Below, one piece after another: positions 2,500 through 63,815 of a stretch of DNA of 64,000 bases. The translations under genes and the position numbers were made by a program. Source of the DNA: an uncultured Bacteroidaceae bacterium (GTDB lineage: Bacteria > Bacteroidota > Bacteroidia > Bacteroidales > GCA-2748055). The notes beneath the pieces were generated by a model. It saw only the letters and a program-made list of their open reading frames with translations. It was not told the DNA's origin and made no database searches. Positions within the stretch are counted from its first letter, which is position 1. Every line of letters starts with the position of its first letter. The stretch lies in contig CAYZMH010000003.1 in assembly GCA_964479445.1 (NCBI GenBank), positions 49,858 to 113,857 of the forward strand, written 5' to 3'.

Positions 2500-2503
2500 G
2501 ATG

Positions 2504-3823: not shown

Positions 3824-3837
3824 GACGGGTTTACAGG

Positions 3838-4839: not shown

Positions 4840-4850
4840 TGGGTTGGTAT

Positions 4851-6002: not shown

Positions 6003-6012
6003 TCTTTTTCGT

Positions 6013-8797: not shown

Positions 8798-8799
8798 AG

Positions 8800-16853: not shown

Positions 16854-16878
16854 CAATGCGACACCAACATATGTTTGT

Positions 16879-22197: not shown

Positions 22198-22218
22198 ATC
22201 GTGGAAAAATTTGGTGTT

Positions 22219-44928: not shown

Positions 44929-46113
44929 TTATATGTAGCGAATCGATATCTCTTTTAGAAATTTCTCTTCCAACAGGCGGGCCATTCTCTTTACAACGGT
45001 CCGTCGTATTTCCAGTTCAACGGGAAGATTGGGGTCCTGGTGGGCTACATTAATACGTGTCCCTATTATAAACTCAATCTCATCGCTCTCTTTCATGAGT
45101 TTAACAATCCTGTCTGCAGGACCGTTACTCAGCGATGTGGCAGGACTGAATTCTTTCAGCAGGCGGGTTACTTTAGTAATGGTCAGGATTCCTTCGGTTA
45201 CAAGGTCAATTCCTTCCATAAATGACATGGGTGGCAGTTCCGGGTCTTCAAATTCCAGGCTATCCTCTATGGAGAGGTCCAGTTCCCTTGCCACAATATC
45301 AGCAGTTGTAGCCCCGCATACGATCTTTTTACCGGGAAACTCCCTGACGGCCCTGGCAAATTTCTCATCATTTTTCTTTTCATAGGGTGGTCCGGTTACC
45401 AACAAGAGCTTCCTGGGTTCGCGCAAATAGATACTGGCACAACTTGTATCATCTTTTGACTGGTAGGAGTCATTCCTGTAGGCTACATTTACCAGCTTGG
45501 CAGCCAGTTTAGAGGCAGAGATATCCTGGTTATTTTTCAGGTACCGTGCACAGTAATCCAACAGGTTATCCCTGCCCCAGCCAAGGGGGTATTTTTCGCT
45601 TCCAAGGCCCGACTGTGTAATACCATCGGAGCAGAAAAGGATGCGGTCTTCTTTCCGGGCTTTAAACTGACATGTTCGGATCTCCTTTCCCGCATTTCGT
45701 TCACTTTTAAGGATAATGCACTGCCATCCGGGTAAAAATGGCTGGTTATTTCTGAGAATTATGGTCTGCGGGTTGTCGTACTCCAGGATGGTGGTGGTTC
45801 CATCTGCTTCAATTTCCACGATAGTAAAGGTGGCATAGTTCATATGTCGCTCACTGCAGACTGGCAGGGTGTTCATAATTATTTCAGCGATCGTTTCGGG
45901 ATTTTTATGTTCGATCGTGAAATTCAATGCCATGGTTGAGGTAAGGGTAGCCAGGACGTTTGCTTTCACTCCATGGCCCATACCATCAGAGAGTACAGCA
46001 ATGGTACGGTTCTCTTCCCTGATCTTGCGACTAAGGAATACATCACCGCAAATTCTCTCATTCCCGTAGTTTCGTTGTTCGCTGGCAACTTCTATGTAGA
46101 AGGGTATATCCAT
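44929..46113 (-). CDS. PP2C/SpoIIE-family serine phosphatase with an extra C-terminal domain (hfsC-like, hydrogenase-sensor-linked)
   Basis: 394 aa. The motif is CGDVF...AVLSDGMGHGVKA. It starts 8 nt after the upstream PAS/H-domain gene. Confidence 0.8.
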   Translation of the reverse strand: MDIPFYIEVASEQRNYGNERICGDVFLSRKIREENRTIAVLSDGMGHGVKANVLATLTSTMALNFTIEHKNPETIAEIIMNTLPVCSERHMNYATFTIVEIEADGTTTILEYDNPQTIILRNNQPFLPGWQCIILKSERNAGKEIRTCQFKARKEDRILFCSDGITQSGLGSEKYPLGWGRDNLLDYCARYLKNNQDISASKLAAKLVNVAYRNDSYQSKDDTSCASIYLREPRKLLLVTGPPYEKKNDEKFARAVREFPGKKIVCGATTADIVARELDLSIEDSLEFEDPELPPMSFMEGIDLVTEGILTITKVTRLLKEFSPATSLSNGPADRIVKLMKESDEIEFIIGTRINVAHQDPNLPVELEIRRTVVKRMARLLEEKFLKEISIRYI

Positions 46114-46121
46114 CGATCCTG

Positions 46122-47972
46122 CTATTTCCCTTTTCGTGTCTGGTAGGATTCAATAATGGAGTTCAGCATTCGTTCGGTTTCTGCAGCTCCTTCGCCCAGG
46201 ATAAACCCTATTTGCTGGACCAAATTAAGATTCTTATCCACCACTTCGCCCAATCGCTTCACGATCTCTTCCTTCTGCACTTCAGGGTCAGAAAGGTCCC
46301 GGATAATCGCTCCGACTATCTTGTTCTTGCGAATTACAAATACCGAGACACTGAGAAGGCGCTCGGCATAGTTGATGTCACGGTTCGTGATGTTTTCATT
46401 ATTGGCAAGCACATAGGTAAAGAGGTTGTAGAAATTGTAGGGTAGCAGGGTTTTCATATCTGCACCCTTAAGTCCGGGCACCACCTCATTTATTTCTTTG
46501 GCATCGGTTCCCAGCAGGTCAATGAAGGTTTGGTTTGCCTGAATGATCTTGAGCTTTTCATCCAGGATCACCAGTCCGGAAGGCAACTTCTGCAGCATGG
46601 CTCTCATAATTTCCGAGGCTTCACTGGCACTCTCCTTCTCTTTCTTCGCTTTCTTTTCCGATTCCTTCAGGGCAGCCTGTGCCTGTGCCAGCTTCTCATT
46701 GGTGATTTTCATGGACTTTATGTGATCCATGCGATTGCGTGTGGCATAGGTGTTGCACATTTCGGGGATTGCGAGTCCCTGGGCAATGGCTATGGCAAAA
46801 TCCTTGCACGAGCTATAGCCACAGGCTCCGCATCCTTTATCATTACTTCCTGATTGGTCGAGCTCATCGAGAATGGTATCCACTTTCTTTTCTGAGGGGA
46901 TCTCAAGTCGCTGGTTATCATTCATGAACGTTCTTTCCAGGGAAAGGTCGGAGAGCTCTTCCAGGCTTTTCACCCACTGTTTGATGTTCAGGCTTTTTGT
47001 GCGCTTTGATACATATTTGATGAGCTGGCTTCTTCGCAGGTATTTTTTACCGCCCGGAGAAGTTCCGCGACCCATGATAAACTCCTTGAAGAACAGATTG
47101 AAATGGGATTTAATCCGGGTAATATTCTCTTCGAATTCATCGATTGCCCGGAGTATTTGTTCACCCTCTGAGGTTACAACCCTGGAGCTCATAATTTTCT
47201 CGTCCAGATCAGCAGCTTCCATGATTCCGCTGGAGAGGGGAAATAATGATCCTTTGTAACCCATCGGGTCATCAAAATCGCTGTATTCAAGTTTTTTCTC
47301 ATCCAGTTTTTTCTCATCAAAAAGATCTCTTAACTCCCTGAAGGTGATAACTTCATCAATTATCTTTTCCCCCGGCAGTCTCCGGATCTCCTCTTTTGAG
47401 GAAATGAGGGGACTTATATAAACCAGCTGGGTGTTTTCCCCGTGAAGAGCACGAACAATTTTCCCGGTGGTCAGTCCCGGAGCAAGAACCGGAGCAAGGT
47501 TCGGGATCAATTCAGGTTTGTACTTTTCGATATACATTACAGTGACCGGACAGTTGGAAAAGAGGTAATACTTACCGCGGGCAGATTGAACCAATTCCTT
47601 GTATTTTCTGGCTACCAGGTCAGCTCCGAAAGAGACCTCCTGGACAATATGAAATCCCAGTTCGCGTACCATGCTGACAAATTTCCGGTAATCGGTAATA
47701 TCCGGAAATTCCCCGGCTATGGAAGGATCCACGAGGGCGGCTACCCTGTTACTTTCCTTAAGGATCGTTTTTACCCTCTCTTTGGAGTCGCGCATTTCAA
47801 TGGCATCCGGACTACAGGCTGCAAGGCAGTTTCCACATCCTATGCACCGGCCCGGAAGTATTTCCGGTTTGGCATACTCAGAACGAACCCGGATGGCTTT
47901 TACCGGACATGCCCTCACACAGGCATAACATACTATGCATTTATCATCGTTTATTTTCAGCAATGGTTCCAT
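46122..47972 (-). CDS. [FeFe]-hydrogenase-like sensory protein: 2x[4Fe-4S] ferredoxin domain, degenerate H-domain, 4-Cys Fe-S domain, PAS domain
   Basis: 616 aa. It has CIVCYACVRACP and CIGCGNCLAACSP clusters. The H-domain fold is present (SFGADLVARKY...FSNCP...) but most H-cluster cysteines are lost. The CGACGYSSCKDFAIAIAQGLAIPEMC Fe-S domain and a C-terminal PAS domain follow. Confidence 0.8.
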   Translation of the reverse strand: MEPLLKINDDKCIVCYACVRACPVKAIRVRSEYAKPEILPGRCIGCGNCLAACSPDAIEMRDSKERVKTILKESNRVAALVDPSIAGEFPDITDYRKFVSMVRELGFHIVQEVSFGADLVARKYKELVQSARGKYYLFSNCPVTVMYIEKYKPELIPNLAPVLAPGLTTGKIVRALHGENTQLVYISPLISSKEEIRRLPGEKIIDEVITFRELRDLFDEKKLDEKKLEYSDFDDPMGYKGSLFPLSSGIMEAADLDEKIMSSRVVTSEGEQILRAIDEFEENITRIKSHFNLFFKEFIMGRGTSPGGKKYLRRSQLIKYVSKRTKSLNIKQWVKSLEELSDLSLERTFMNDNQRLEIPSEKKVDTILDELDQSGSNDKGCGACGYSSCKDFAIAIAQGLAIPEMCNTYATRNRMDHIKSMKITNEKLAQAQAALKESEKKAKKEKESASEASEIMRAMLQKLPSGLVILDEKLKIIQANQTFIDLLGTDAKEINEVVPGLKGADMKTLLPYNFYNLFTYVLANNENITNRDINYAERLLSVSVFVIRKNKIVGAIIRDLSDPEVQKEEIVKRLGEVVDKNLNLVQQIGFILGEGAAETERMLNSIIESYQTRKGK

Positions 47973-47984
47973 GGGTCACACAGC

Positions 47985-48230
47985 TTAGGCAAAGGTTTTT
48001 TCCAGGATATCAATAATATTTTGCGGGGTGACCTTCTCATGGATCTCTCCATTGATCTTCACAACGGGGCCCTTGCTGCAATCGCTGAAACAGTGATTGC
48101 CCTTCAGTACAATGTCCTGCTCCCGATCATGTTCCCTGAGATAGTTCTGAATGACCGGAAGTGTCTTCCGGTTGCCGCGGCTGAAGCAGGAACTTCCCAT
48201 GCATATCTCGATAACGATACGGTCTTTCAT
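47985..48230 (-). CDS. thioredoxin-like [2Fe-2S] ferredoxin (hfsA-like)
   Basis: The start was moved to MKDRIVIEICMGSSCFSRGN at 48230. Four Cys are present (CMGSSC...CFSDC). It lies 12 nt upstream of the PAS/H-domain gene. Confidence 0.75.
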   Translation of the reverse strand: MKDRIVIEICMGSSCFSRGNRKTLPVIQNYLREHDREQDIVLKGNHCFSDCSKGPVVKINGEIHEKVTPQNIIDILEKTFA

Positions 48231-48254
48231 CACAGATATGTTGAAATAACAAAG

Positions 48255-48262
48255 CAAAGTTA
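48255..48262 (-). promoter_or_regulatory. -7 promoter box TAACTTTG for the [2Fe-2S]/PAS-H-domain/PP2C operon
   Basis: The reverse complement of caaagtta is a perfect TAnnTTTG match, 25 nt upstream of the ATG at 48230. Confidence 0.4.
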
Positions 48263-48274
48263 ATAAATTCACAA
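48257..48274 (-). promoter_or_regulatory. candidate Rex operator (TTGTGAATTTATTAACTT on the minus strand)
   Basis: The left half TTGTGAA is a perfect match to the Rex consensus TTGTGAA-N4-TTCACAA. The right half matches 4/7. It overlaps the -7 box. Confidence 0.3.
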
Positions 48275-48470: not shown

Positions 48471-48490
48471 TTAGGGAGCAGGTGGGGTCA

Positions 48491-48973
48491 ATGGCTCATA
48501 ACAGGGTAATCATGAAGGATATAGAACATATTTTACAACGTTTCCCACAGGTAAATCGCGATGTGCTTATTCCTGTACTCCAGGCGGTTCAGGATGAGTA
48601 TGGATACCTGTCGGAGGATTCAGTAAGAATGATTGGGGAACACCTGGGACTCCCCACCAGTAAGATATATGGATTGGCAACCTTTTACAACCAGTTTACC
48701 TTTTCGGCCAGGGGTAAATTTCACATTCAGGTTTGCGATGGTAGTTCGTGTCATTTAGAAAAAAACGGGGATTTGCTCAAAGAGTTGTTCAAGCAGCTGG
48801 GTATTCGAAACGGGCAAACCACCCGGGACGGAATGTTCAGCCTGGAGGTTTTAGCGTGTATCGGTGCATGCGGTCAGGCGCCGGTGATGGTAGTAAATGG
48901 GGACTATTATCCCAGGGTCACTCCACCGGGGATGAGGGAAATCCTGGAAGATTATAAAAATAGAACAGGTTGA
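48491..48973 (+). CDS. hydC: NuoE-like [2Fe-2S] subunit of a trimeric [FeFe]-hydrogenase (HydC)
   Basis: The cluster motif is VCDGSSCHL...CIGACGQAPVMVVNG. The start is ambiguous (GTG 48482, ATG 48491 or ATG 48512). Confidence 0.85.
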   Translation: MAHNRVIMKDIEHILQRFPQVNRDVLIPVLQAVQDEYGYLSEDSVRMIGEHLGLPTSKIYGLATFYNQFTFSARGKFHIQVCDGSSCHLEKNGDLLKELFKQLGIRNGQTTRDGMFSLEVLACIGACGQAPVMVVNGDYYPRVTPPGMREILEDYKNRTG

Positions 48974-48974
48974 T

Positions 48975-50924
48975 ATGGTAACAACCGAGGTCAGTGAGGG
49001 TGTCGTCTCGTCGATCCTGGAGATGGTTCAGAGGGACCGTTCGGAGTATGATGCAAGGTTGCAGGCAGTCAGGGCCTACTATATGCGTGAATATGTAGAG
49101 TTACCATTGATCATGGTAAGCAACGATACCGGGGGCAGGGTTGCCGGGGGTGATGCGGTGATGGATGCAGTAAACCGGTATTTATCTGACCGGGGGATGG
49201 ATGGCGAGCTACGTGCGACAGGTTCATTGGGATTGCTTACGGTTGAGCCGGTTTTGAGCATACAATTGCCGGGAAGAACCCGGTTGATGTTCGGACCGGT
49301 GGAGGAGGAGGATGTGGCTTTTATTCTGGATGACGTTTTTCACAACTCCGTACCCGATGATAAGGTGATTTGCCAGCTCAGGAGTCCTAAACTGGATGCC
49401 TGGATTGACGTGCCCTTCATGGATGAGACACCCTTTTTTGCCAGTCAGAAAAGACTGCTTCTCAGGGACTGCGGAATTATAGATCCATTATCCGTTGAAG
49501 CATATATTGCCGGTGATGGTTACAAGGCTTTTTTGAAGACCATCAGGCACTACACGTTTGAAGAGATCTGTCTGCTTGTGGAAGAGAGTGGATTGCGCGG
49601 AAGATCAGGGAGCGGATTTAAGACCGGTACGAAATGGAAAGTTGCCTATCATACCCCGGCAGATCAGAAATACCTGGTATGCAATGCAGAGGAGAGTGAT
49701 CCGGGCGCTTTTATGGACCGGGCGCTCATGGAAGGAAACCCGCATCAGCTGATCGAGGGGATGGCTATAGCCTCCTATGCTATAGGGGCAACCAAGGCGA
49801 TCATTTATATTCGTTCGGAGTACCATGAATCCATCAAAAAGTTAGAGAGAGCTATCTCGGCTGCGCGGGATTACGGATTGCTCGGTGATAATATTTTCAA
49901 TAGCGGATTTAACCTGGACATCGCCATAAGAAAAGGTCCGGGTGCCTTTGTTTGCGGGGAAGAAACAGCACTGATTGCCAGTCTGGAAGGCAAACGGGGC
50001 ATGCCCCAGTCAAAACCGCCTTTCCCTGCAGTACGCGGTTTTCATGGGAAGCCCACTGTGATTAACAATGTTGAGACTCTTTCCAATGTTCCTCATATTA
50101 TCAGAAAAGGTCCTGCCTGGTACAGGGAAACCGGTACACCGGAGTCTCCGGGTACCAAAATATTCGCCCTTTCGGGTAAAGTCAGGAAGGCCGGACTTAT
50201 AGAAGTACCTATGGGGACTTCCCTCAATAGCCTGGTTCTGGATATTGCCGGTGGACCCCGGGAAGGGTCTGATTTGAAGGCAATTCATATCGGGGGGCCA
50301 TCCGGCTGCTTACTGCCCGGGGATCAACTGGATATTCCGATCAGTTTTGAATCCCTGAAAGAGGCTGGTGTGGTAATGGGTGCCGGAGGGATCCTGGTGC
50401 TGGATCAGTGGGTATGCCTGGTGGATCTTGTCAAGTATTTCATGGATTTCATGCAGCATCAAAGTTGCGGGAAATGCATTCCCTGCCGTGAGGGCACAAA
50501 GCGGATGTCTGAAATACTGGATGGCATCAGTAAAAAGCCCCAGGATGAGGAAGGTCATACAACCCTGGAGCGATTCAAAGGGGTTATGCAACTTGGTAGT
50601 CTGGCAGAGGTGATGAAGGACACCTCTTTATGCGGATTGGGACAATCGGCAGCGAATCCTGTTCTGACTGCCCTCAAACACTTCAGGAAAGAGTTCGAGG
50701 AGCATATTTTTGACAGGAATTGCCCGGCCAATGTATGCACGGAACTTCGAACCTATTACATTGATGTTGATTTGTGTACGGGTTGTTCCCTGTGCGCGAA
50801 AAAATGTCCTGAAGATGCAATAATAGGTACAGAAAGGCATCCCTATTTTATTGTATCGGAGAAGTGTACGGGTTGTGGGATCTGTCATGAGGTATGTAAA
50901 TTCAACGCTGTTTATTACAAGTAG
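48975..50924 (+). CDS. hydB: NuoF-like flavoprotein subunit of a trimeric [FeFe]-hydrogenase (HydB)
   Basis: 649 aa. It has an FMN/NADH-binding core (GRSGSGFKTGTKW, NAEESDPGAF), an N3-type cluster (SCGKCIPCREG, SLCGLGQS), and two C-terminal CxxCxxCxxxCP motifs. Confidence 0.88.
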   Translation: MVTTEVSEGVVSSILEMVQRDRSEYDARLQAVRAYYMREYVELPLIMVSNDTGGRVAGGDAVMDAVNRYLSDRGMDGELRATGSLGLLTVEPVLSIQLPGRTRLMFGPVEEEDVAFILDDVFHNSVPDDKVICQLRSPKLDAWIDVPFMDETPFFASQKRLLLRDCGIIDPLSVEAYIAGDGYKAFLKTIRHYTFEEICLLVEESGLRGRSGSGFKTGTKWKVAYHTPADQKYLVCNAEESDPGAFMDRALMEGNPHQLIEGMAIASYAIGATKAIIYIRSEYHESIKKLERAISAARDYGLLGDNIFNSGFNLDIAIRKGPGAFVCGEETALIASLEGKRGMPQSKPPFPAVRGFHGKPTVINNVETLSNVPHIIRKGPAWYRETGTPESPGTKIFALSGKVRKAGLIEVPMGTSLNSLVLDIAGGPREGSDLKAIHIGGPSGCLLPGDQLDIPISFESLKEAGVVMGAGGILVLDQWVCLVDLVKYFMDFMQHQSCGKCIPCREGTKRMSEILDGISKKPQDEEGHTTLERFKGVMQLGSLAEVMKDTSLCGLGQSAANPVLTALKHFRKEFEEHIFDRNCPANVCTELRTYYIDVDLCTGCSLCAKKCPEDAIIGTERHPYFIVSEKCTGCGICHEVCKFNAVYYK

Positions 50925-50939
50925 TTTAATTGAAGGGAA

Positions 50940-52664
50940 ATGGTCATACAGATTGAAGTAAATAACAAAACCATACAGGCTCAAAAAGGGGAGACAATCC
51001 TTTCTGCCCTGAGCCGCAATGGAATACAGGTTCCTACCATCTGCAGCATGAAAGAATTGACACCCAGCGGTGCTTGCCGTATGTGTGTAGTTGAGGTGGA
51101 GGGGAATGAGCACCTGGTACCGGCCTGTTCCTATCCGGTAGAAGAGTGGATGAAGATCAAAACCCATTCACCGAGGGTTCTCAGGGCGCGAAAGACAAAT
51201 GTCGAGCTATTGTTATCTGACCACCCTGATGACTGTCTTTATTGTGAACGGAACGGGAATTGCGAATTACAGAAGCTGGCCGAGGATCTGCATGTGCGGG
51301 AGAGGCGTATTCCTGGGAGGAAGAGCAGCTACAAGATCGATAAATCCAGTCCGGGAATCATCCGGGATCCTGCCAAATGTATACTATGCGGACGATGTGT
51401 GAGGATTTGCGAAGAGATTGTAGGTGTTGCCACCCTGGATTTTGTCAGGCGTGGCAGTGATTTGCAGATCGCTACTACCATGTCCAAGCCGTTAAATTTT
51501 TCCAATTGCATTCAATGCGGACAATGTGTTATCACCTGTCCTACAGGAGCACTTACCGAACATATGCAATTCCCGGAGCTGGAGGCATCCCTTCATCATC
51601 CCGAAAAAATTGTTGTCGCCCAGTATACGCCTGCTGTAGCAGCCTCACTTGCAGAGGAGTTTAATCTCAAAAAGGGTTTGGACGTGAAGGGGTTGATCAA
51701 TTCAGCCCTTCGAAAATCGGGATTTAATTATGTATTTGACGGATCATTCGGAGGTGAAGTCACCATTATGGAGCAGGCAGAGGCCTTTAAAGAACGGGTA
51801 AAGAAAGGAGGTCTTCTTCCCATGCTATCTTCTACCTGTCCGGGCTGGATCACCTATGTTGAGCAGTATCGTCCTGAATTGATCCCCCACCTGTCGGAGG
51901 TACGTTCTCCCCAGCAAATTATGGGAGGGCTTATCAAGACCTGGTTTGCCCGGCTGAACCACCTGGATCCCTCGCAGATCTTTTCGGTAGTGATCACCTC
52001 CTGCACAGCGGCAAAACAGGAGTCTCAGCGTGTCGAATTGTCGCGGAAAGGAGTCAATGATATTGATGCCGTACTAACCACTCGTGAACTGGCACGTCTG
52101 ATCCGACTTAACGGGATTGACATGGAACATCTTGATCCTGAGACTTCAGATGGACCCTTCCATGCACAAAGTTCTGCAGGTAAAATGTTTGCGGTTGCAG
52201 GAGGTGAGGCAGAGGTATTCGCAAGGACGGTATTTAAAAAATTCAACAGGAAGGAGATGCCGGTTTTACGTCTTAATAAATTCCGCGGCGCCAAAGATCT
52301 TAAAGAGACACAGATTCAGACATCCGGTGGTGATATTCACCTGGTGGCTGTAAACGGACTAAAGAATGCACTCAGGCTGCTGGACGAGGTAAAGGCCGGC
52401 AAAAAGCAGGTTGATTTTATAGAGGTAATGGCTTGTCCGGAAGGATGCATCAACGGAGGCGGACAACCTATCCCGGCAGGAGAAACAATTTTAAAAAACC
52501 GTATGCGCACTATATATGACATTGATAACAAAGAGACGATCAAAGTTGCTCACCGAAGTAGTGCCATTCAAAGACTTTATGAAGAGTATCTGACAGCGCC
52601 CCTGAGTAAGGAGAGTTGCAGGCTTTTGCATGCCCGGTATAGCGAAAAAGAGGCATTATTGTGA
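50940..52664 (+). CDS. hydA: [FeFe]-hydrogenase large subunit, M3 architecture (HydA/HndD-like), with non-canonical active-site environment
   Basis: 574 aa. It has an N-terminal [2Fe-2S] domain, a His-ligated cluster region, 2x[4Fe-4S], and an H-domain with L3 EVMACPEGCINGGGQP intact. L1 is SSTCPGW (canonical TSCCPxW) and L2 is TSCTAAKQE (canonical MPCxxKxxE). Confidence 0.85.
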   Translation: MVIQIEVNNKTIQAQKGETILSALSRNGIQVPTICSMKELTPSGACRMCVVEVEGNEHLVPACSYPVEEWMKIKTHSPRVLRARKTNVELLLSDHPDDCLYCERNGNCELQKLAEDLHVRERRIPGRKSSYKIDKSSPGIIRDPAKCILCGRCVRICEEIVGVATLDFVRRGSDLQIATTMSKPLNFSNCIQCGQCVITCPTGALTEHMQFPELEASLHHPEKIVVAQYTPAVAASLAEEFNLKKGLDVKGLINSALRKSGFNYVFDGSFGGEVTIMEQAEAFKERVKKGGLLPMLSSTCPGWITYVEQYRPELIPHLSEVRSPQQIMGGLIKTWFARLNHLDPSQIFSVVITSCTAAKQESQRVELSRKGVNDIDAVLTTRELARLIRLNGIDMEHLDPETSDGPFHAQSSAGKMFAVAGGEAEVFARTVFKKFNRKEMPVLRLNKFRGAKDLKETQIQTSGGDIHLVAVNGLKNALRLLDEVKAGKKQVDFIEVMACPEGCINGGGQPIPAGETILKNRMRTIYDIDNKETIKVAHRSSAIQRLYEEYLTAPLSKESCRLLHARYSEKEALL

Positions 52665-54658
52665 TGAAACAGGGAGAAGAACGGAAGCTGGTATATTCCA
52701 TAAAGGATCGCTGCAGGGTCTGTTATACCTGTGTCAGGGAATGCCCGGTAAAGGCAATCCAGATTAAAGATGGACAGGCTATTGTCATCCAGGAGCGGTG
52801 TATTGCCTGTGGAAATTGTACAAGGGTTTGTCGCCAGGGAGCCAAAGCTTATATGGAATCTGTCGATGAGGTCAATCTTTTACTGGAGTCTAATGCCCGG
52901 GTGATTGCCCTGGTAGCTCCCAGCTTCATCGCTGAATTCGAGGAGTTAACGGATCCACGGGTATTTGTGGGAATGGTAAGGGCCCTGGGATTTGATGAGG
53001 TATATGAAGTGGCATTTGGTGCGGACATGGTGGCCCGGGAATATGAAAAGCTCTATAAGGAGCGGCCAAAAAGGGGATATATCTCTTCTGATTGTCCTGC
53101 CATTGTATCCTATGTGGAAAAATACTACCCCAAGCTGATTGGTGATCTTTCACCCATTGTGTCACCTATGGTAGCTACCGCGCGTTTTCTGAGACACAGG
53201 TATGGCAATGAATTCAGGCTTGTTTTTATTGGTCCCTGCATTGCAAAAAAAGAGGAATCGAACGAGGTCGATGCGGTGATCACCTTTGCTGAATTAAGGA
53301 ACATGTTGCGGATACAACGTATTCGTCCGACCAATACCACCCAGGGGGAGTTCAATGCTCCCAGGGGGATGAAAGGAACAGCTTTCCCTATAAGCAGGGG
53401 CATGCTCCAAACCCTGAATATGGATGGTGATCAGCTGGAACGGGAGGTGATTGTGGCAGAGGGACGGATTAATTTCCAGGATGCAATCAAAGAGTACCGG
53501 AGTCATGATATTGAAAACATGCACCTGGAATTGCTCTGCTGTGAAGGCTGCACCATGGGACCGGGAACCACTCGTGACGGTAAAAAATTTGTTCGGAGGG
53601 CATCCGTTATCCGCTATCTGAATAATAAGTTGAACAGCGAAGACCATGAATTCTGGCAGGAATCAATGGATGAGGCCAAAGCGATTAATTTGCGGCAGTC
53701 ATTCAAGATGGATGACCAACGGAAGAAGGATCCTTCGAACAACGAGATTCGTAAAGTTCTTCAATCAATGGGGAAATATACGCCACAGGATCATCTTGAC
53801 TGCGGTGCCTGTGGATATGATACATGCCGCAATCACGCGATTGCCATCATCAAGGGATTGGCGGAGATAGAGATGTGTCTGCCTTACTCTATCGACAAAC
53901 TGCACAACACGGTCAATAAACTGGCTGTTTCCAACGATAAATTATTATCGGTTCAGCAGGCGTTGAAACAGACCGAGAAACTGGCTCACATGGGACAGCT
54001 TTCGGCCGGTATTGCACACGAGCTTAACAATCCGCTGGGAGTTGTGATTATGTATTCCAATATATTACTGGATGAGGTTGAGGGGGAATCACCCCTGAAA
54101 GAAGATTTGGATCTGATCGTAAAACAGGCCGAGCGATGTAAGAATATTGTGGGCGGATTGCTTAATTTTGCAAGGAAGAATCAGGTACGCCACCAGGAGA
54201 TTGATTTAAAAAAGATGCTGGAATTAAGTATCTCTTCGATCATCGTTCCCGGGGGGATCCACCTGGAGATAGATGATCGGCTCAACAATAGCTGGGCAGA
54301 ACTGGACCAGGAACAGATGATCCAGGTGATATCCAACCTGGTTAAGAATGCTGTTGAGGCGATGGAACAGGGAGACATCCGGGTAATTGCCGAGGATACC
54401 GATGACCAGGTTACCATTACGGTGAGTGATACCGGTAAAGGGATCAATGAGGAGGAGTTGGATAAGATATTTGAACCTTTTTATACCACCAAAGGCATTG
54501 GAATGGGGACAGGACTCGGACTGGCGACTGCTTACGGGATAGTGAAAATGCACAAGGGACAAATCGAAGTTCAGTCCAATGCCGATCCCCTGAAAGGCGA
54601 TACAGGAACTTCATTTATTATACAGGTGCCAAGGCACCCCAAAATATCTAATGTGTGA
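52664..54658 (+). CDS. [FeFe]-hydrogenase-like sensor fused to a histidine kinase (HydS-type H-domain, 4-Cys Fe-S domain, HisKA, HATPase_c)
   Basis: It has two N-terminal 4Fe-4S motifs. The H-domain carries SSDCP, GPCIAKKEE and ELLCCEGCTMGPG. The CGACGYDTCRNHAIAIIKGLAEIEMC domain follows, then the H-box IAHELNNPLG and N/G boxes (NLVKNAVEAM, DTGKGI, GTGLGLA). The ATG at 52664 overlaps the hydA stop. Confidence 0.85.
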   Translation: MKQGEERKLVYSIKDRCRVCYTCVRECPVKAIQIKDGQAIVIQERCIACGNCTRVCRQGAKAYMESVDEVNLLLESNARVIALVAPSFIAEFEELTDPRVFVGMVRALGFDEVYEVAFGADMVAREYEKLYKERPKRGYISSDCPAIVSYVEKYYPKLIGDLSPIVSPMVATARFLRHRYGNEFRLVFIGPCIAKKEESNEVDAVITFAELRNMLRIQRIRPTNTTQGEFNAPRGMKGTAFPISRGMLQTLNMDGDQLEREVIVAEGRINFQDAIKEYRSHDIENMHLELLCCEGCTMGPGTTRDGKKFVRRASVIRYLNNKLNSEDHEFWQESMDEAKAINLRQSFKMDDQRKKDPSNNEIRKVLQSMGKYTPQDHLDCGACGYDTCRNHAIAIIKGLAEIEMCLPYSIDKLHNTVNKLAVSNDKLLSVQQALKQTEKLAHMGQLSAGIAHELNNPLGVVIMYSNILLDEVEGESPLKEDLDLIVKQAERCKNIVGGLLNFARKNQVRHQEIDLKKMLELSISSIIVPGGIHLEIDDRLNNSWAELDQEQMIQVISNLVKNAVEAMEQGDIRVIAEDTDDQVTITVSDTGKGINEEELDKIFEPFYTTKGIGMGTGLGLATAYGIVKMHKGQIEVQSNADPLKGDTGTSFIIQVPRHPKISNV

Positions 54659-54663
54659 GCCCT

Positions 54664-55056
54664 ATGGTACAACAAAAAAAGCGAATTCTCCTCGCAGATG
54701 ATGATGTTGATTACCTGTTTCAATTGAAATTGCACCTGGAGGGGTGGGGATATGATGTGATCTCTGCAGAGAGTCAGCAAGAAGCGGAGCAAATTCTGGA
54801 ATCCCTCAAACCCGATCTGGCCATTTTCGATCTGATGATGGAGAACGAGGATAGCGGGTTTATTTTAGCGCACAGGCTTAAAACAAAGTATCCCGACACC
54901 CCGCTTGTTATCTCCACGGCAGTTACTGCGGAAACAGGTTTGAATTTCGGCATCAACAGCGAAGAGGATCGCAGCTGGATCAAAGCAGATCTTTACCTGG
55001 AAAAGGGAGTTCGACCCGAGCAACTGAAGTTGGAAATTGAAAAGCTGATCGATTAG
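54664..55056 (+). CDS. single-domain response regulator (REC only)
   Basis: It has ILLADDD...LAIFDLMMEN and no output domain. The ATG at 54664 is preferred over the GTG at 54655. Confidence 0.8.
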   Translation: MVQQKKRILLADDDVDYLFQLKLHLEGWGYDVISAESQQEAEQILESLKPDLAIFDLMMENEDSGFILAHRLKTKYPDTPLVISTAVTAETGLNFGINSEEDRSWIKADLYLEKGVRPEQLKLEIEKLID

Positions 55057-55058
55057 CT

Positions 55059-56186
55059 ATGGAGACATTGAAGCTCATGGTGGTGGATGATGAACCGGGT
55101 ATTCGTTCGGGTGTAATACGAATCCTGCGGAATCACCGGGTAAGTTATCCCTTTATGGATGAAGATTTCAACTTCGATTGCAGCGAGGCTTCTACCGGGG
55201 AAGAGGCCCTGGAGATGGTCAACAGGGATACACCGGATATTGTGCTGCTCGATAACAAGTTGCCCGGCATAAAGGGAATGGAGGTTCTGGAGATCATCCG
55301 GCAGAAGAAGCTTGATACCGTTGTTGCCATGATCACCTCCTATGCCTCCCTGGAGATCGCAGTGAAGGCAACCAATGACGGAGCGTATGATTTTATCCCG
55401 AAGCCTTTTACTCCCCAGGAGTTAAAGTCGTCCATGGACAACATTGTAAAGCAACTCTACCTCAAACGGATCACCCGGGAAATGAACAAGGAGGGCAAGC
55501 GGATCCGGTACCAGTTTCTTTCGGTGCTCAGCCATGAGCTGAAAGCGCCATTAAATGCCGTGGAGGGGTACCTGCAGGTTATGCAGGAACGGAAGATGGG
55601 GGAGGAACTCACTTCGTATGACCAGGTGATTGATCGCTGCCTTCAGAGAATTGGAGGGATGCGGGGATTGATCATGGACCTGCTGGATTTCACTAAAATC
55701 AGGTTGGAGAAAAAGGATGAAAAAGTGGAGCGTGTGGAGCTCAATGAGCGCATCAGTATGGCGATCTCAACGGTCAACCCCATGGCCATACAACGCAATA
55801 TATCCTTTGAAGTGGAAGCCCCGGTCCCGGTCATAGTGGAGGCAGATCCTTCAGATATTGATATTATCCTGAATAATTTGATATCCAATGCAGTAAAATA
55901 CAATACGGAGGGTGGAAAGGTAACGATCCGCCTGGAGCAGCAGGATAGCGTGGCAAAAATAGTGATCATGGATACAGGAATTGGAATGAATCCGGAAGAG
56001 GTATCCCAACTGTTCAAGGAGTTTGTCAGGATAAAAAACGTCAAGACCAAAGACATCACAGGTTCCGGGTTGGGACTTGCCATTGTCCGTAAACTGATCG
56101 AGCTTTACAAGGGACACATTGACGTGGAGAGTCTACCCGACAGGGGTAGTACGTTCACAGTGACCCTTCCCCTGGGTTACCTTTAG
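55059..56186 (+). CDS. hybrid REC-histidine kinase (N-terminal receiver, HisKA, HATPase_c)
   Basis: 375 aa. It has MVVDDEPGIRSG...IVLLDNKLPG, the H-box LSHELKAPLNAV, and DTGIGM...GSGLGLAIV. Confidence 0.85.
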   Translation: METLKLMVVDDEPGIRSGVIRILRNHRVSYPFMDEDFNFDCSEASTGEEALEMVNRDTPDIVLLDNKLPGIKGMEVLEIIRQKKLDTVVAMITSYASLEIAVKATNDGAYDFIPKPFTPQELKSSMDNIVKQLYLKRITREMNKEGKRIRYQFLSVLSHELKAPLNAVEGYLQVMQERKMGEELTSYDQVIDRCLQRIGGMRGLIMDLLDFTKIRLEKKDEKVERVELNERISMAISTVNPMAIQRNISFEVEAPVPVIVEADPSDIDIILNNLISNAVKYNTEGGKVTIRLEQQDSVAKIVIMDTGIGMNPEEVSQLFKEFVRIKNVKTKDITGSGLGLAIVRKLIELYKGHIDVESLPDRGSTFTVTLPLGYL

Positions 56187-56370: not shown

Positions 56371-57024
56371 ATGTTAAAAATGAAACTACCTGAACGAACG
56401 GTGGAGCGCCTGAGTGCTTACAGGCGCACGTTGCTGAATTGTTTATCCAACGGAAAGACTCATATCTATTCCCATGAACTTGCCCAGTTGCATCATAACA
56501 CGGCGGTGCAGGTGCGAAGGGACATTATGTTTATCGGGTATAGCAGTATGCAGCGAAAGGGGTATGATGTGCGTGAACTCATTGATGTAATTGGAGGCAT
56601 TCTTGATTCGGAGGAGGTTCTGAATGTGGCGGTAGTGGGTATAGGTAACCTGGGTCGTGCCATTACGGCATACTTTATGGGTAAGCGTTCGAAGCTTAAT
56701 ATTACCGCTGCATTTGATGTGGATCCAAATAAGATAGACCGGGTTGTTGCCGGGGTGAAGTGTTATTCGGTCAATCGCTTAAAAGAGATCATCCGGGAGA
56801 AAAATATTTCCATTGCTATAGTAACGGTCCCGTCGGATCAGGCGCATGTGGTTGCAGAGGAGCTGGTGGTTGCAGGTATACGGGGTATACTTAATTTCAC
56901 GACCATACCGTTGAATGTATCGCCGGATGTATACCTGGATGAGTATGATATGATAACCTCCCTGGAGAAGGTCGCTTATTTTGTCAAGAAACAGGAGGAT
57001 CAGCCTGTACAGCAAAATTCCTGA
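56371..57024 (+). CDS. rex: redox-sensing transcriptional repressor Rex
   Basis: 217 aa. It has an N-terminal wHTH (ERLSAYRRTL) and a Rossmann NADH site VAVVGIGNLGRAI. Confidence 0.88.
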   Translation: MLKMKLPERTVERLSAYRRTLLNCLSNGKTHIYSHELAQLHHNTAVQVRRDIMFIGYSSMQRKGYDVRELIDVIGGILDSEEVLNVAVVGIGNLGRAITAYFMGKRSKLNITAAFDVDPNKIDRVVAGVKCYSVNRLKEIIREKNISIAIVTVPSDQAHVVAEELVVAGIRGILNFTTIPLNVSPDVYLDEYDMITSLEKVAYFVKKQEDQPVQQNS

Positions 57025-57030
57025 TTTCCC

Positions 57031-57972
57031 ATGAAAACTCATTATTCCATGGATGACCTGGGGAAGATTATCAATCCAGTGGTCACAACCGGAACGTTTG
57101 ACGGGGTGCATGCAGGACATCATGTGATTATCAACCGCTTGATCCAGAGGGCTCGTGAAATTAGAGGAGAGTCGGTTCTGATCACCTTTCATCCGCATCC
57201 GCGCAGGGTTCTTTATCCGGAAGCCCAGGGTAAAAACCTGTTGTTGATCAATTCCCAGGAAGAGAAAAAGGAGTTGCTTTCAAAAACGGGGCTGGACCAT
57301 CTGATCATCCTGGAATTTACGCGTGATTTTTCTGCCACCTCGTGCTCCGAATTTGTGGAACAATACCTGGTGGGACGCTTGCATTCGAAAATCATTGTGG
57401 TTGGTTTTAACCACTATTTTGGAAAGAATAAACGGGGTGATTTTGAATACCTTTACCGTCTCCAGGAGAAGTACTCATTCAGGGTGGAGGAGATTCCGCA
57501 TCATGATATTCAAAATGAAACAGTCAGTTCCACCAAGATCCGCAGTGCGCTGACGGAGGGAAACATCCAGCGCGCCAATGCATATCTGGAGCATCATTAC
57601 AGGATCATTGCCGTTTTGTTTGCTAATGATGACGATCATGATCAGACAGGTAAAGAGGTGTATGATGTGAATATCAATGAGCGCATTAAGCTAATACCTG
57701 CAGATGGCATTTATGCAGTATCTGTTCATGTCCGTAATAAAATGCACAAAGCGCTCTTTCTTGTGGAGGACGGGGGTGTTGAAAACAATATGCTTGCTTC
57801 CACGCTAAAAATGAAGACAGTGCCTCTTGAACAGACAGGCGGGTTGGATCGGGTAAAGGGTACGATCTGTTTTCATAAAAGGATTGGCTCACCTGTCAGA
57901 TCACGAAATACAATCAGGGAGAGTAAGATACTGGAGACAGGTCTCCGTGATATTGAAGAGTTGATCTATTGA
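57031..57972 (+). CDS. ribF: bifunctional riboflavin kinase / FMN adenylyltransferase
   Basis: 313 aa. It has TTGTFDGVHAGHHVII and SSTKIR motifs. Confidence 0.85.
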   Translation: MKTHYSMDDLGKIINPVVTTGTFDGVHAGHHVIINRLIQRAREIRGESVLITFHPHPRRVLYPEAQGKNLLLINSQEEKKELLSKTGLDHLIILEFTRDFSATSCSEFVEQYLVGRLHSKIIVVGFNHYFGKNKRGDFEYLYRLQEKYSFRVEEIPHHDIQNETVSSTKIRSALTEGNIQRANAYLEHHYRIIAVLFANDDDHDQTGKEVYDVNINERIKLIPADGIYAVSVHVRNKMHKALFLVEDGGVENNMLASTLKMKTVPLEQTGGLDRVKGTICFHKRIGSPVRSRNTIRESKILETGLRDIEELIY

Positions 57973-58828: not shown

Positions 58829-60889
58829 ATGATTACAACAGAACTTATTGATCCTCACAGTATAGCAGTAATCGGGGCCTCCAATAATACAGGAAAACCC
58901 GGTGGCAAGATTTTTTATAATATCCGGCATGGCTCTTTTTCCGGAGAGCTTTATGCAATGAATCCGAAGGAAGAAAAAATTCAGGGCAATCCTGCTTTCC
59001 GCGATCTGATGGATCTTCCGGAGACTGAATTGGCCATACTGGCAATACCTTCAAAATTTTGTGAGGAGGCAGTTGAAATTATGGCGCGGGAAAAGAGAAC
59101 CCGTGCATTCATAATTATTTCAGCAGGTTTCAGCGAAGAGCACGATAAAGGTGCTGCTATTGAAAAACGGATTACAGAGATCTGCAATCGCTACGAAGCT
59201 GCCCTGATCGGGCCCAATTGCATTGGTGTAATGACCCCCTCTTACCAGGGTGTGTTTACCCTTCCCATTCCGAAACTTGATCCCGCCGGCTGTGATTTTA
59301 TATCGGGAAGCGGGGCCACTGCCGTTTTTATCATGGAAGCAGGTTTGCAAAAAGGATTGAAGTTTAACAGCGTATTTTCAGTAGGTAATTCGGCACAGAA
59401 CGGGGTGGAGGATGTCCTGGAGTATATGGATCAAACCTTTCGTCCGGGGGAGAGTTCGCTGACAAAAATCCTCTACTTTGAATCCATAAAGAATCCTGAC
59501 AAATTGTTACGGCACGCTTCGAGTCTGAGAAGGAAAGGGTGCAGAATCGCAGCTATCAAAGCAGGTACTTCTGAAGCCGGAAGCCGGGCGGCCTCTTCGC
59601 ATACTGGGGCACTGGCCAGTTCAGATCAGGCTGTGGATGCGTTGTTCAGGAAAGCAGGTATTATCCGCTGTTATGGCAGGGATGAGCTTACAACAGTGGC
59701 ATCGGTGCTCCAGTATCCGGAAAAGTCCATTCATAAGGTGGCGATTATCACCCATGCAGGCGGACCGGCGGTTATGCTGACCGATGCTCTTGCAGAGGGA
59801 GGTATCCGGGTTCCACACCTGGAAGGTACTGCGGCCAACGAATTAAAAGAATCGCTCTTCCCGGGATCTTCCACGGCCAATCCAATTGACATTCTTGCCA
59901 CAGGAACAGCCGAACAGGTTGGTATATGCCTTGAGTATTGCGAAAACAGGTTTTCGGAGATTGATGCCGTTGTGGTGATTTTTGGAACACCCGGGCTTGC
60001 TCCTGTATTTGATGTGTATGATACCATGCATGAGCACATGAAGAGGAGTAAAAAGCCTGTATTTCCGGTCCTGCCGTCGGTGACAACAGCTAAGAAGGAG
60101 GTTGAATCATTCCTGGCAGCCGGAAATATGAATTTTCCCGATGAAGTACTTCTTGGAAAGGCCCTCACAAAAGTATCCGGCACTCCTTTTCCGGCAAATG
60201 AGTCTGTATACCTGGAGGGCATTAATATCCAGGAGATCCGGAATCTTATAAGTACTTCTCCCGGAGGATACCTGCCCCCGGAAACAGTTCAAAAGATGTT
60301 GGATCATGCCGGTATTCCCACGGTTACCGAAAAAGTGGTTACCGAAAATTCTTTTTTAACAGAGGCAGCGGAGCAGATCGGGTATCCCATTGTAATGAAG
60401 GTGGTCGGACCGGTACATAAAACAGATGTTGGCGGAGTTGTCCTGGATATCGGGGACGAGGAGAGTCTGTTAAAGAGTTTTGAGGGGATGAAAGCCATTG
60501 AAGGATGCGAAGGGGTATTGGTTCAGCCCATGTTAACCGGACTGGAATTGTTTGCAGGGGCAACATATGAACCGGGTTACGGGCATGTGATAATGTGTGG
60601 GCTGGGAGGCATATACATTGAAGCTCTGAAGGATGTATCGACCGGACTGGCACCTCTTTCCAGGGCGGAGGCATGTTCTATGATCAGATCCTTAAGAAGC
60701 TATAGCTTACTGGAGGGAGTGAGAGGTGAAAAGGGGATTAATATTGAAGCTTTCGCGGATATACTGGTTCGGCTTTCTTCGTTCCTGCGCTATTCCACCG
60801 AGATTCGCGAGCTTGACTTGAATCCGCTCATGGCAAGAGGTGAAGAGATTATGGTAGTGGATTCCCGGATACGGATTGAGAAGGCCTGA
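58829..60889 (+). CDS. ADP-forming acetyl-CoA synthetase / acetate--CoA ligase family protein (fused alpha-beta; CoA-binding, succinyl-CoA-synthetase-like and ATP-grasp domains)
   Basis: 686 aa. It has PHSIAVIGASNNTGKPG, SHTGALAS (phospho-His loop), and a C-terminal ATP-grasp domain (GYPIVMKVVGPVHKTDVGGV). Confidence 0.85.
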   Translation: MITTELIDPHSIAVIGASNNTGKPGGKIFYNIRHGSFSGELYAMNPKEEKIQGNPAFRDLMDLPETELAILAIPSKFCEEAVEIMAREKRTRAFIIISAGFSEEHDKGAAIEKRITEICNRYEAALIGPNCIGVMTPSYQGVFTLPIPKLDPAGCDFISGSGATAVFIMEAGLQKGLKFNSVFSVGNSAQNGVEDVLEYMDQTFRPGESSLTKILYFESIKNPDKLLRHASSLRRKGCRIAAIKAGTSEAGSRAASSHTGALASSDQAVDALFRKAGIIRCYGRDELTTVASVLQYPEKSIHKVAIITHAGGPAVMLTDALAEGGIRVPHLEGTAANELKESLFPGSSTANPIDILATGTAEQVGICLEYCENRFSEIDAVVVIFGTPGLAPVFDVYDTMHEHMKRSKKPVFPVLPSVTTAKKEVESFLAAGNMNFPDEVLLGKALTKVSGTPFPANESVYLEGINIQEIRNLISTSPGGYLPPETVQKMLDHAGIPTVTEKVVTENSFLTEAAEQIGYPIVMKVVGPVHKTDVGGVVLDIGDEESLLKSFEGMKAIEGCEGVLVQPMLTGLELFAGATYEPGYGHVIMCGLGGIYIEALKDVSTGLAPLSRAEACSMIRSLRSYSLLEGVRGEKGINIEAFADILVRLSSFLRYSTEIRELDLNPLMARGEEIMVVDSRIRIEKA

Positions 60890-62744: not shown

Positions 62745-63815
62745 ATGAAGGAACTACGATTAATGAAAGGCAATGAGGCGGTTGCCGAAGCAGCGATCAG
62801 AGCTGGTGTGGATGCTTATTTCGGGTATCCTATCACACCCCAGTCTGAGGTACTGGAATACCTTACCCAGGAACGGCCGGAGGAGCGAACAGGGATGATT
62901 GTACTGCAGGCAGAAAGTGAAATTGCTGCAATTAATATGGTATATGGGGCTGCCGGAACCGGAAAGAAGGTAATGACCTCCTCCTCGAGTCCCGGGATCA
63001 GTCTGAAAATGGAGGGAATAAGTTATATAGCAGGAGCAGAGTTACCATGTGTAGTATTGAACGTAGTGCGGGGAGGACCGGGTCTTGGCACCATCCAGCC
63101 TTCACAGGCCGATTATTTCCAGGCAACCAAAGGGGGCGGCCATGGGGATTACCGGTTGATCGTGCTGGCACCTGCCTCGGTTCAGGAGATGGCTGATTTT
63201 GTTGACCTGGCATTTGAACTGGCGTTTAAGTACCGAAATCCTGCCATGATTCTGTCCGACGGACTTATCGGGCAGATGATGGAAAAGGTGGAGATGCCAG
63301 ATCAGAAAGAGCGACTGACCGAATTCGACCAGGATTGGGTGATTACCGGCAAGAGCAACGGCCGTGAACGTAATATCATTACCTCCCTGAACCTGGATCC
63401 CGAGGAACAATACAGACACAACATTCATCTCCAGGAGAAGTATGCATCCATGTCGCAGGATGTACAATTCGAAACATTCCATTGTGAAGATGCTGATTTC
63501 CTGCTTGTGGCTTATGGCTCCAGTTCCCGTATTTGTCAGAAATCAGTGGATATTGCCAGGAGCCAGGGTAAGAAATTGGGACTTCTGCGACCTATAACGC
63601 TGTTCCCCTTCCCAAAAGAGGTGATTACAAAACTTGCCCGCCAGGTTAAAGGAATCCTTAGCGTGGAGATGAGTGCAGGACAGATGGTAGAAGATGTAAA
63701 ACTGGCTGTGAACGGGCGTATTCCCGTTCATCATTATGGTACTTTCGGCGGTAAGATCTTTTCTCCCGAGGATGTACTTGAAGCCATCAATGAAAAATTT
63801 GTAGGAGGACTATAA
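62745..63815 (+). CDS. korA: 2-oxoacid:ferredoxin oxidoreductase alpha subunit (KorA/VorB-like)
   Basis: 356 aa. It has the MKGNEAVAEAAIRAGVDAYFGYPITPQSE N-terminus typical of OFOR alpha subunits. Confidence 0.85.
   Translation: MKELRLMKGNEAVAEAAIRAGVDAYFGYPITPQSEVLEYLTQERPEERTGMIVLQAESEIAAINMVYGAAGTGKKVMTSSSSPGISLKMEGISYIAGAELPCVVLNVVRGGPGLGTIQPSQADYFQATKGGGHGDYRLIVLAPASVQEMADFVDLAFELAFKYRNPAMILSDGLIGQMMEKVEMPDQKERLTEFDQDWVITGKSNGRERNIITSLNLDPEEQYRHNIHLQEKYASMSQDVQFETFHCEDADFLLVAYGSSSRICQKSVDIARSQGKKLGLLRPITLFPFPKEVITKLARQVKGILSVEMSAGQMVEDVKLAVNGRIPVHHYGTFGGKIFSPEDVLEAINEKFVGGL

Follow-up and report, generated by a model that had tools for sequence, protein, structure and literature searches.

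Current models of catalysis by [FeFe] hydrogenases hold Cys299 and Lys358 (residue numbers throughout are those of CpI) to be essential in Group A. Group A enzymes are recognized by an H-domain fold with four cysteines that bind the H-cluster (C300, C355, C499 and C503) and by three sequence loops: L1, TSCCP, with the relay cysteine Cys299; L2, MPCxxKxxE, with Lys358 three residues after the cysteine (C+3); and L3, ExMxCxxGCxxG, with Met497. Their proton pathway runs along Glu279-Ser319-Glu282-Arg286. The closest described systems to the gene considered here are the trimeric A3 enzymes HydABC with solved structures 8A6T, 7Q4V and 7P5H, in which hydC and hydB lie directly upstream of hydA. Here we analyse a HydA subunit encoded in a stretch of 64,000 nucleotides from an uncultured Bacteroidaceae bacterium (assembly GCA_964479445.1, contig CAYZMH010000003.1, positions 49,858 to 113,857 of the forward strand; the whole stretch is called the window). 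It belongs to a clade that departs from Group A at both Cys299 and Lys358, and the departure looks like a natural redesign rather than a defect, with the pocket of HydA rebuilt as a set.

A different way of delivering protons is described for TamHydS, a Group D enzyme from Thermoanaerobacter mathranii, for which a pathway from E252 via E289 and S249 to D265 was proposed and tested (PMC10407848). E252 lies 3.4 Å from the amine of the azadithiolate (ADT), at a place where Group A has valine, and the variants E252V and E252D abolish H2 oxidation (PMC10407848). Published residue pairs equate A137, S191 and L291 of TamHydS with C299, M353 and M497 of CpI (PMC11803613), from which it follows that E289 of TamHydS is E495 of CpI. 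V423 of CpI lines the central cavity, where the [2Fe] subcluster is bound, at the gate for CO access (PMC5954619, PMC11023054).

HydA of the window is encoded by an open reading frame of 574 codons for amino acids at 50940-52664 of the plus strand. Its domains follow the M3 order, i.e. a [2Fe-2S] domain, a His-ligated [4Fe-4S] site, a 2x[4Fe-4S] domain, the H-domain and a tail resembling the small subunit. This order and the grouping with A3 set it apart from the short M2-type architecture of HydS proteins. The register against CpI was set by MAFFT alignments and by phmmer searches of the HydA chains in the PDB; the CpI sequence used was identical at 574 of 574 positions to PDB 1FEH/3C8Y. All landmarks were in register with zero indels between residues 208 and 503. 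Thus the gapless alignment stated in the original prediction, which had been made from the sequence alone, was borne out, and a relay Cys or Glu hidden by local indels did not turn up. The best solved relatives were HydA of T. kivui (8A6T, chain 8a6t_A, E = 3.8e-146), A. woodii (7Q4V) and T. maritima (7P5H), followed by CpI. An AlphaFold2 model had a predicted local distance difference test score of 85-96 across the H-domain and low confidence in the F-domain. Foldseek matched it to HydA of T. kivui (8a6t_A, the top match) and A. woodii and to CpI; the PDB structures of the CpI variants C299A, C299D, E279Q and E282A were also among the fold matches.

Compared to CpI, HydA carries the changes E279Q, E282A, C299T, M353T, P354S, K358A and V423E, while C300, C355, C499, C503, S319, R286, M497 and E361 are kept. 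The H-domain fold and all four H-cluster cysteines of Group A are therefore present together with an L3 of the Group A form, EVMACPEGCINGGGQP. L1 reads SSTCP and lacks the relay cysteine, L2 reads TSCTAAKQE and lacks Lys at C+3, and of the proton pathway S319 and R286 remain with Q279 and A282 in place of the two glutamates. The positions are as follows.

51774..51785, plus strand: Q279 to A282, the relay positions E279 and E282 of CpI; Q279 is cag at 51774-51776
51828..51842, plus strand: L1, SSTCP, with T299 (acc, 51834-51836) and the ligand C300 (tgt, 51837-51839)
51996..52022, plus strand: L2, TSCTAAKQE, with T353, S354, C355, A358, K359 and E361
52206..52208, plus strand: E423 (codon gag; Val in CpI), in the central [2Fe] cavity, a candidate proton relay
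52422..52448, plus strand: L3, EVMACPEGC, with E495, M497, C499 and C503 kept

The substitutions that had been read at positions 279, 282, 299, 353 and 354, including the two codons cag and acc, were recovered in the alignments, as were the residues described as retained (the four cysteines, M497 and S319). It is true that C299, E279 and E282, the canonical relay of Group A, are gone, as are M353, P354 and K358, from a HydA that directly follows genes resembling NuoE and NuoF. One point of the original prediction had to be changed: the lysine at C+3 of L2 is lost as stated, but it has not shifted to C+4. All canonical references have K359 as well (CpI MPCTSKKFE, T. kivui MPCIGKKFE, A. woodii MPCTAKKYE, T. 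maritima MPCTAKKFE); because they hold both lysines, K358 was lost and the ancestral K359 stayed. The motif set is absent from the characterised trimeric enzymes of T. kivui, A. woodii and T. maritima in the PDB, so that the idea of a motif set common to normal A3 enzymes found no support there. HydA also scored below the cut-offs of the NCBIfam hydrogenase models, with 673.2 against 765 for NF040763 (group A6) and 392.8 against 405.95 for TIGR02512 (group A). These scores account for the non-committal name which NCBI gives to its relatives, merely 'large subunit C-terminal domain-containing protein'.

Whether HydA stands alone was addressed by a search of about 5.8 billion proteins, which returned 120 close homologues of 56-97% identity, the named ones being from metagenome-assembled genomes (MAGs) of Bacteroidota/Bacteroidales, and by a scan of species-representative genomes, whose best 80 loci were all from Bacteroidota. 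A neighbour-joining tree of 203 sequences, with CpI as the root, placed those lacking K358 in a single clade of 132 including HydA (100/100 bootstraps). This derived clade was nested in a Bacteroidota clade (100/100) whose outer branches have the canonical TSCCP and MPCTAKK. The distinct clade of trimeric enzymes that had been proposed as a check does exist. On the other hand, the loss of the relay, although real, is no oddity of HydA; it is a character of 132 of the 199 sampled Bacteroidota sequences, a ratio that gives no estimate of prevalence, as sampling was skewed to relatives of HydA. The derived type occurred in 38 of the 80 best species-level genomes. The substitution set is thus a clade character and no one-off.

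The pockets of the orthologous operons form a series. At its canonical end stand TSCCP, MPCTAKKFE, E279 and E282; in the middle are types with Asp or Gly at 299 (SSDCP, TGDCP) and a normal L2; and at the derived end TS[S/R]CP or SSTCP is combined with [ST][SNT]C-x-A-[AST]-K-x-E and Q279. Loci with a natural Asp299 (TGDCP, SSDCP) and an otherwise canonical L2 were seen in the sister clade (L006, L014, L055, L056, L058, L061, L064, L068, L077 and L078); of the known substitutions at the relay cysteine of clostridial enzymes, that to Asp retains the most activity. Among the 132 members of the derived clade position 299 is Ser in 99, Arg in 30, Thr in two and Asn in one, and position 358 is Ala in 122, Ser in six, Thr in three and Asp in one. 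E279Q is found in 129, and position 282 is Ile, Val, Leu or Ala in most. At the same time C300 is kept in 132 of 132 and C355, C499, K359, P324, Q326, E278, G421, G422 and E495 are likewise invariant; E361 and M497 are each present in 131, and C503 is absent from one sequence through an alignment gap only.

Within the derived clade two types of pocket can be told apart. In the first, S/T299 goes with A232 and S354, and E282 is mostly replaced by I, V, L or A. HydA of the window is of this type, with the rare T299 and with A282. In the second type, e.g. at loci L003, L008, L011, L016, L018, L021 and L034, R299 is accompanied by E/D232 in 30 of 30 sequences as well as by N354, usually by H325, and E282 is kept. 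The strict co-variation suggests a salt bridge between R299 and E232, and the charged pair seems to reach across the pocket at the former site of the relay cysteine.

The derived genes are under selection. By the Nei-Gojobori method the ratio of nonsynonymous to synonymous substitutions (dN/dS) of HydA was 0.065 against its relative at locus L081 (97% amino acid identity) and 0.055 against that at L082 (91%). The H-domain alone gave 0.07-0.08, and HydB, the neighbouring subunit, 0.058 against L081. HydA is therefore under strong purifying selection with dN/dS at about 0.06. The L082 protein has Ser in place of Thr at position 299, so it is the hydroxyl that stays there. A pocket conserved in this manner is unlike a decaying site.

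A position-by-position comparison of derived and canonical sequences showed that, besides 299, 353, 354 and 358, position 423 is the cleanest signature of the clade. Glu423, in the context GGE-x-EA, is present in 132 of 132 derived sequences and in none of the 71 others of the same alignment; CpI and all canonical references have Val423 (GGVMEA). When 1.84 billion cluster representatives were searched, 91 of the best 150 had the combination C299/K358/V423, and in this search Glu423 was seen only with a residue other than Cys at 299, never with Cys299. Beyond the island family, Glu423 was absent from all sampled sequences. One protein of 37% identity (P0178) with Glu423 and without Cys299 comes from the same kind of gene island but branches elsewhere in the tree. 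It may represent a second origin of Glu423, with a long-branch effect as the alternative. V423E is the most likely compensation for the loss of Cys299.

The published residue pairs and the spacing between them make it probable that E252 of TamHydS is equivalent to position 423 of CpI; a preference for Ser/Thr three residues upstream (T420 in CpI) points the same way. Both E423 and E495 are invariant in the clade. If the mapping holds, the clade would have convergently put the Group D relay, E423 plus E495, and Ser/Thr353 into an A3 scaffold while M497 was kept.

The change is not restricted to the active site. HydB (649 residues) found its best PDB matches among BfuB-type subunits (7t2r_B, 9n5u_B, 7q4v_B, 8a6t_B and 7p5h_B). 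Its core for flavin mononucleotide (FMN) and NADH is intact, and so are its [4Fe-4S] site and the 2x[4Fe-4S] domain at the C-terminus, the latter with two Fer4 matches at residues 594-646 that align to the BfuB structures. This ferredoxin-like domain is a mark of bifurcating complexes and is absent from non-bifurcating types. The N-terminal [2Fe-2S] cysteines expected of HydABC/Bfu complexes are missing, as seen where 'vsndtggrvagg...atgslglltvep' of HydB aligns with 'vcrgtgctasga...etgchgmcemgp' of 7t2r_B. The three cysteines of this domain were present in 20 of 25 genomes with a canonical HydA, and partly in four more, vs none of 37 with a derived HydA; 24 of these 37 have Ser-Ser-Ser instead. 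The parallel between the loss in HydB and the change of the HydA pocket means that the complex was remodelled beyond the active site. The genes of the locus are listed below.

44929..48272, minus strand: divergent regulatory arm of three genes, syntenic in related loci
44929-46113, minus strand: PP2C/SpoIIE phosphatase
46122-47972, minus strand: protein with H-domain and PAS domain
47985-48272, minus strand: small thioredoxin-like [2Fe-2S] protein of 95 residues, between the PAS-type H-domain gene and hydC
48482..48973, plus strand: HydC, NuoE-like thioredoxin-like [2Fe-2S] subunit (PF01257, 2.4e-48; NuoE NCBIfam models above their cut-offs)
48975..50924, plus strand: HydB, NuoF-like FMN/NADH subunit with C-terminal 2x[4Fe-4S] domain (Pfam Complex1_51K, NADH_4Fe-4S, Fer4 twice)
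49110..49275, plus strand: N-terminal thioredoxin-like domain of HydB without cluster cysteines, residues ~46-100, from the alignment to 7t2r_B
50940..52664, plus strand: HydA, M3-type [FeFe] hydrogenase large subunit with non-canonical H-cluster pocket (Fe_hyd_lg_C, 2.9e-79; Fer2_4, NADH-G_4Fe-4S_3, Fe_hyd_SSU)
52661..54658, plus strand: H-domain sensor kinase with HisKA/HATPase, Group C-type HydS (Pfam Fe_hyd_lg_C, FeS, HisKA, HATPase_c)
54655..56186, plus strand: response regulator and hybrid response regulator/histidine kinase, syntenic in most related loci
56371..57972, plus strand: redox-sensing repressor Rex and FAD synthetase-like gene, syntenic in related loci

With hydC and hydB directly 5' of hydA the locus has the gene order of HydABC/Bfu operons. 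The island as a whole reads PP2C and H-domain/PAS on one side, then NuoE, NuoF, HydA, the H-domain kinase with response regulator and hybrid response regulator/histidine kinase, Rex and RibF; a Lon gene also lies on the minus strand upstream of hydC. The same island is common to almost all 80 related loci, with canonical and derived HydA alike, which makes it probable that the operon is still concerned with H2. The kinase gene starts with a GTG that overlaps the hydA stop by 4 nucleotides (52661-52664), and it overlaps the start of the response regulator by another 4 (54655-54658), which suggests translational coupling of catalytic and sensor genes. A scan for Rex operators with a Firmicute consensus returned matches at chance level only and none near the promoter. 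The hydA gene was present in many metagenome runs and was found in none of the RNA runs. The 95-residue [2Fe-2S] protein is conserved in the related loci L081, L083 and L086, and its placement is reminiscent of hfs-type regulatory clusters of Firmicutes.

None of the three H-domain proteins of the island has TSCCP, just as had been claimed: L1 is SSTCP in HydA, SSDCP in the kinase-linked protein (52661-54658) and FSNCP in the H-domain/PAS protein (46122-47972). The kinase-linked protein, with GPCIAKKEE and CCEGC in the other loops, retains K358 and lacks Glu423. The H-domain/PAS protein has Leu for C355 ('SPLISSKEE') and has lost C499 and C503 of L3, so that with three of the four cluster cysteines gone it cannot ligate an H-cluster; its N-terminal 2x[4Fe-4S] domain and the Cys motif of the C-terminal 'FeS' domain are kept. 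By its sequence this is real decay, in contrast to the pocket of HydA.

What was observed directly are the substitutions, their conservation throughout the clade, the co-variation, the synteny and the purifying selection; from these we infer that the cofactor is bound, that E423 serves as a relay and what this means for catalysis. The explanation we prefer, with about as much belief as doubt, is that HydA is a functional, non-canonical subunit of an electron-bifurcating-type [FeFe] hydrogenase that uses a Glu-based relay and anchors its [2Fe] subcluster differently. HydA would be the catalytic subunit of a predicted HydABC/Bfu-type hydrogenase linked to NADH and ferredoxin. The H-cluster would still be bound despite the losses of C299, E279, mostly E282, M353, P354 and K358. 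E423, placed in the cavity close to the distal iron and to the amine of ADT and paired with E495, would take over proton delivery, the two acting as E252 and E289 do in TamHydS, and the hydroxyl of Ser/Thr299 would only position the amine. H2 turnover would be expected, probably slower and with an altered bias or tolerance of inhibitors, in a complex presumably regulated by both adjacent H-domain sensor systems and by Rex. We favor this explanation because the residues of the [2Fe] cradle are kept, selection is strong, the context of H2 sensors and Rex is shared with canonical orthologues, and TamHydS offers a precedent.

Several points weigh against it. Single laboratory changes cripple Group A enzymes: replacing the lysine equivalent to K358 in CpI or CrHydA1 prevents incorporation of [2Fe], and the C299S/A variants of both are nearly inactive. 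TamHydS itself is a very slow enzyme. The balance of charges looks unfavourable, as the pocket loses a Lys and gains a Glu beside an anionic cofactor. The mapping of E252 may be off by one helical turn, which would place it at 427. The loss of the cluster cysteines of HydB shows that the whole complex changed. Finally, the family shows that the site is open to drift: the sister group of the island HydAs, from Bacteroidales MAGs (among them P0124, P0125, P0133, P0135 and P0178 and loci L083, L084 and L086), is highly diverse at 299, 353, 358, 423 and 497, e.g. A/S/M/L/M or S/T/A/L/S, with the four cysteines and synteny kept. One of these, P0124, was seen in 162 blocks of the sequence collection.

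Some of the same observations would fit a HydA that is an iron-sulfur subunit with [4Fe-4S]H and without [2Fe], serving another NADH/ferredoxin role or offering an empty cavity to another substrate. The cyanide-anchoring K358, M353 and C299 are gone, an acidic residue sits in the cavity, the N-terminal cluster cysteines of HydB were lost in parallel, HydA falls under every curated NCBIfam hydrogenase cut-off and the pockets of related island HydAs are very diverse. Yet M497 (131/132), P324, Q326, G421-G422 and C503, whose sole known role is to cradle [2Fe], are kept, and true decay looks different, as the H-domain/PAS protein without C355, C499 and C503 demonstrates. The operon moreover keeps regulators of the H2-sensor type, and TamHydS binds an H-cluster with Glu at the equivalent place (PMC10407848). 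We consider a [2Fe]-less HydA unlikely, if worth keeping in mind. A HydA that does bind the H-cluster could also behave like HydS, being very slow with high overpotential and high affinity, and the complex would then be a valve for redox or H2 sensing and no producer of bulk H2. The absence of Cys299 and the presence of Ser/Thr353 and Glu423 as in Groups C/D speak for it (PMC10407848, PMC11803613). So may the 'group A3' HydA of Bacteroides thetaiotaomicron, which after artificial maturation had 0.22% of the activity of CrHydA1, was barely transcribed and gave no fitness phenotype (PMC12578642); this enzyme is possibly relevant to the clade and is set beside it by the A3 label, not by its pocket residues. 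But HydA has no signalling domain, is part of a NuoEF-type module and has two dedicated sensors next to it, and M497, kept in the clade, is lost in TamHydS and TmHydS (PMC11803613). A sensing valve of this kind seems improbable to us. We see next to no chance that the substitutions come from a wrong alignment, an error of sequencing or the decay of a pseudogene. These sources were ruled out by gapless, in-register alignments with three methods, by 132 independent sequences with the same states, by the metagenome runs and by the dN/dS of about 0.06.

Returning to the functional hydrogenase that we prefer, its likeness to known systems is of several kinds. With the A3 HydABC of 8A6T, 7Q4V and 7P5H it shares the M3 order, about 41% identity in HydA, hydC and hydB directly upstream, the FMN/NADH motifs and C-terminal 2x[4Fe-4S] domain of HydB, and the four cysteines, L3 and K359 of HydA. 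It differs from them in the seven pocket changes, in the missing N-terminal cysteines of HydB and in the scores below the NCBIfam cut-offs. TamHydS likewise lacks Cys299, has Ser at 353 where the clade has Ser/Thr, and, if our mapping is right, a conserved Glu at the valine of Group A beside the ADT amine, paired with the Glu of L3 (PMC10407848, PMC11803613). It is, however, a monomeric M2-type protein outside any NuoEF complex, with Ala299 and Leu497. As the derived clade is nested in Group A3, the likeness is to be regarded as convergent, not phylogenetic. Group C HydS proteins, including the two other H-domain proteins of the island, have also lost the relay cysteine of Group A, but carry PAS or histidine kinase outputs and short H-domains. 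The engineered variants of CpI and CrHydA1 (C299S/A/D, E279Q, E282A, K358N and M353L) are altered at the same positions; unlike these, the natural changes form a conserved set that includes an additional Glu and is maintained by selection.

A serine for cysteine in L1 of putative bifurcating HydA proteins was noted in hypersaline surveys by polymerase chain reaction, at Great Salt Lake and Guerrero Negro (PMC4284687), and in BfuA of Hydrogenedentota (PMC11406978). Bacteroidota clusters flanked on both sides by a sensor-type gene are mentioned in the latter study too. In these cases the Ser is at the position written 300, or the register is unresolved, and L2 is the canonical MPCxAKK; changes at 358 and 423 go unmentioned (PMC4284687, PMC11406978). 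A Ser at the position of the C300 ligand, TSCSP, is found in HydA1 of A. woodii (7q4v_A), a biochemically active bifurcating enzyme. In full-text literature searches no description was found of the combined signature at 299, 353, 354, 358 and 423 or of the change in HydB.

The pocket of HydA is thus a well-populated variant of a known enzyme type. Its genes are now counted in surveys as 'group A3' H2 producers of Bacteroidota, with activity only assumed. Engineering for gain of function between Groups A and D is still at its start, and the graded intermediates in orthologous operons (TSCCP, TGCCP, TGDCP/SSDCP, TSSCP and TSRCP) are a ready evolutionary series, in which the coupling of proton delivery to cofactor anchoring and to catalytic bias could be tested. 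As a tentative and rather doubtful proposal, the lineage may have convergently swapped the cysteine for a Glu relay like that of Group D, dropping the Lys358-cyanide anchor and one cluster of HydB on the way. The Glu in the cavity might also cap the distal iron reversibly and so make the enzyme tolerant of O2, CO or sulfide in the places where these bacteria occur (soils, salt lakes and mats).

Downstream of the island the window contains genes for an ADP-forming acetyl-CoA synthetase and an alpha-type 2-oxoacid:ferredoxin oxidoreductase (58829-60889 and 62745-63815), which by their annotation would be in keeping with fermentation as the origin of reduced ferredoxin. Loci L083 and L084 have the synthetase in synteny as well. 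At 14832-19941 and 22201-28197 are a HAMP-SpoIIE phosphatase, an nSTAND1 NTPase with WD40 repeats (1039 residues) and a protein of 1998 residues, whose sole Pfam match is the C-terminal sorting domain of the type IX secretion system (T9SS), which fits Bacteroidota. On the minus strand at 477-10407 a mevalonate-diphosphate-decarboxylase-like gene is grouped with genes for HMG-CoA reductase, acyl-CoA dehydrogenase, biotin carboxylase, enoyl-CoA hydratase and a carboxyltransferase. This cluster looks like one for leucine catabolism and mevalonate metabolism.

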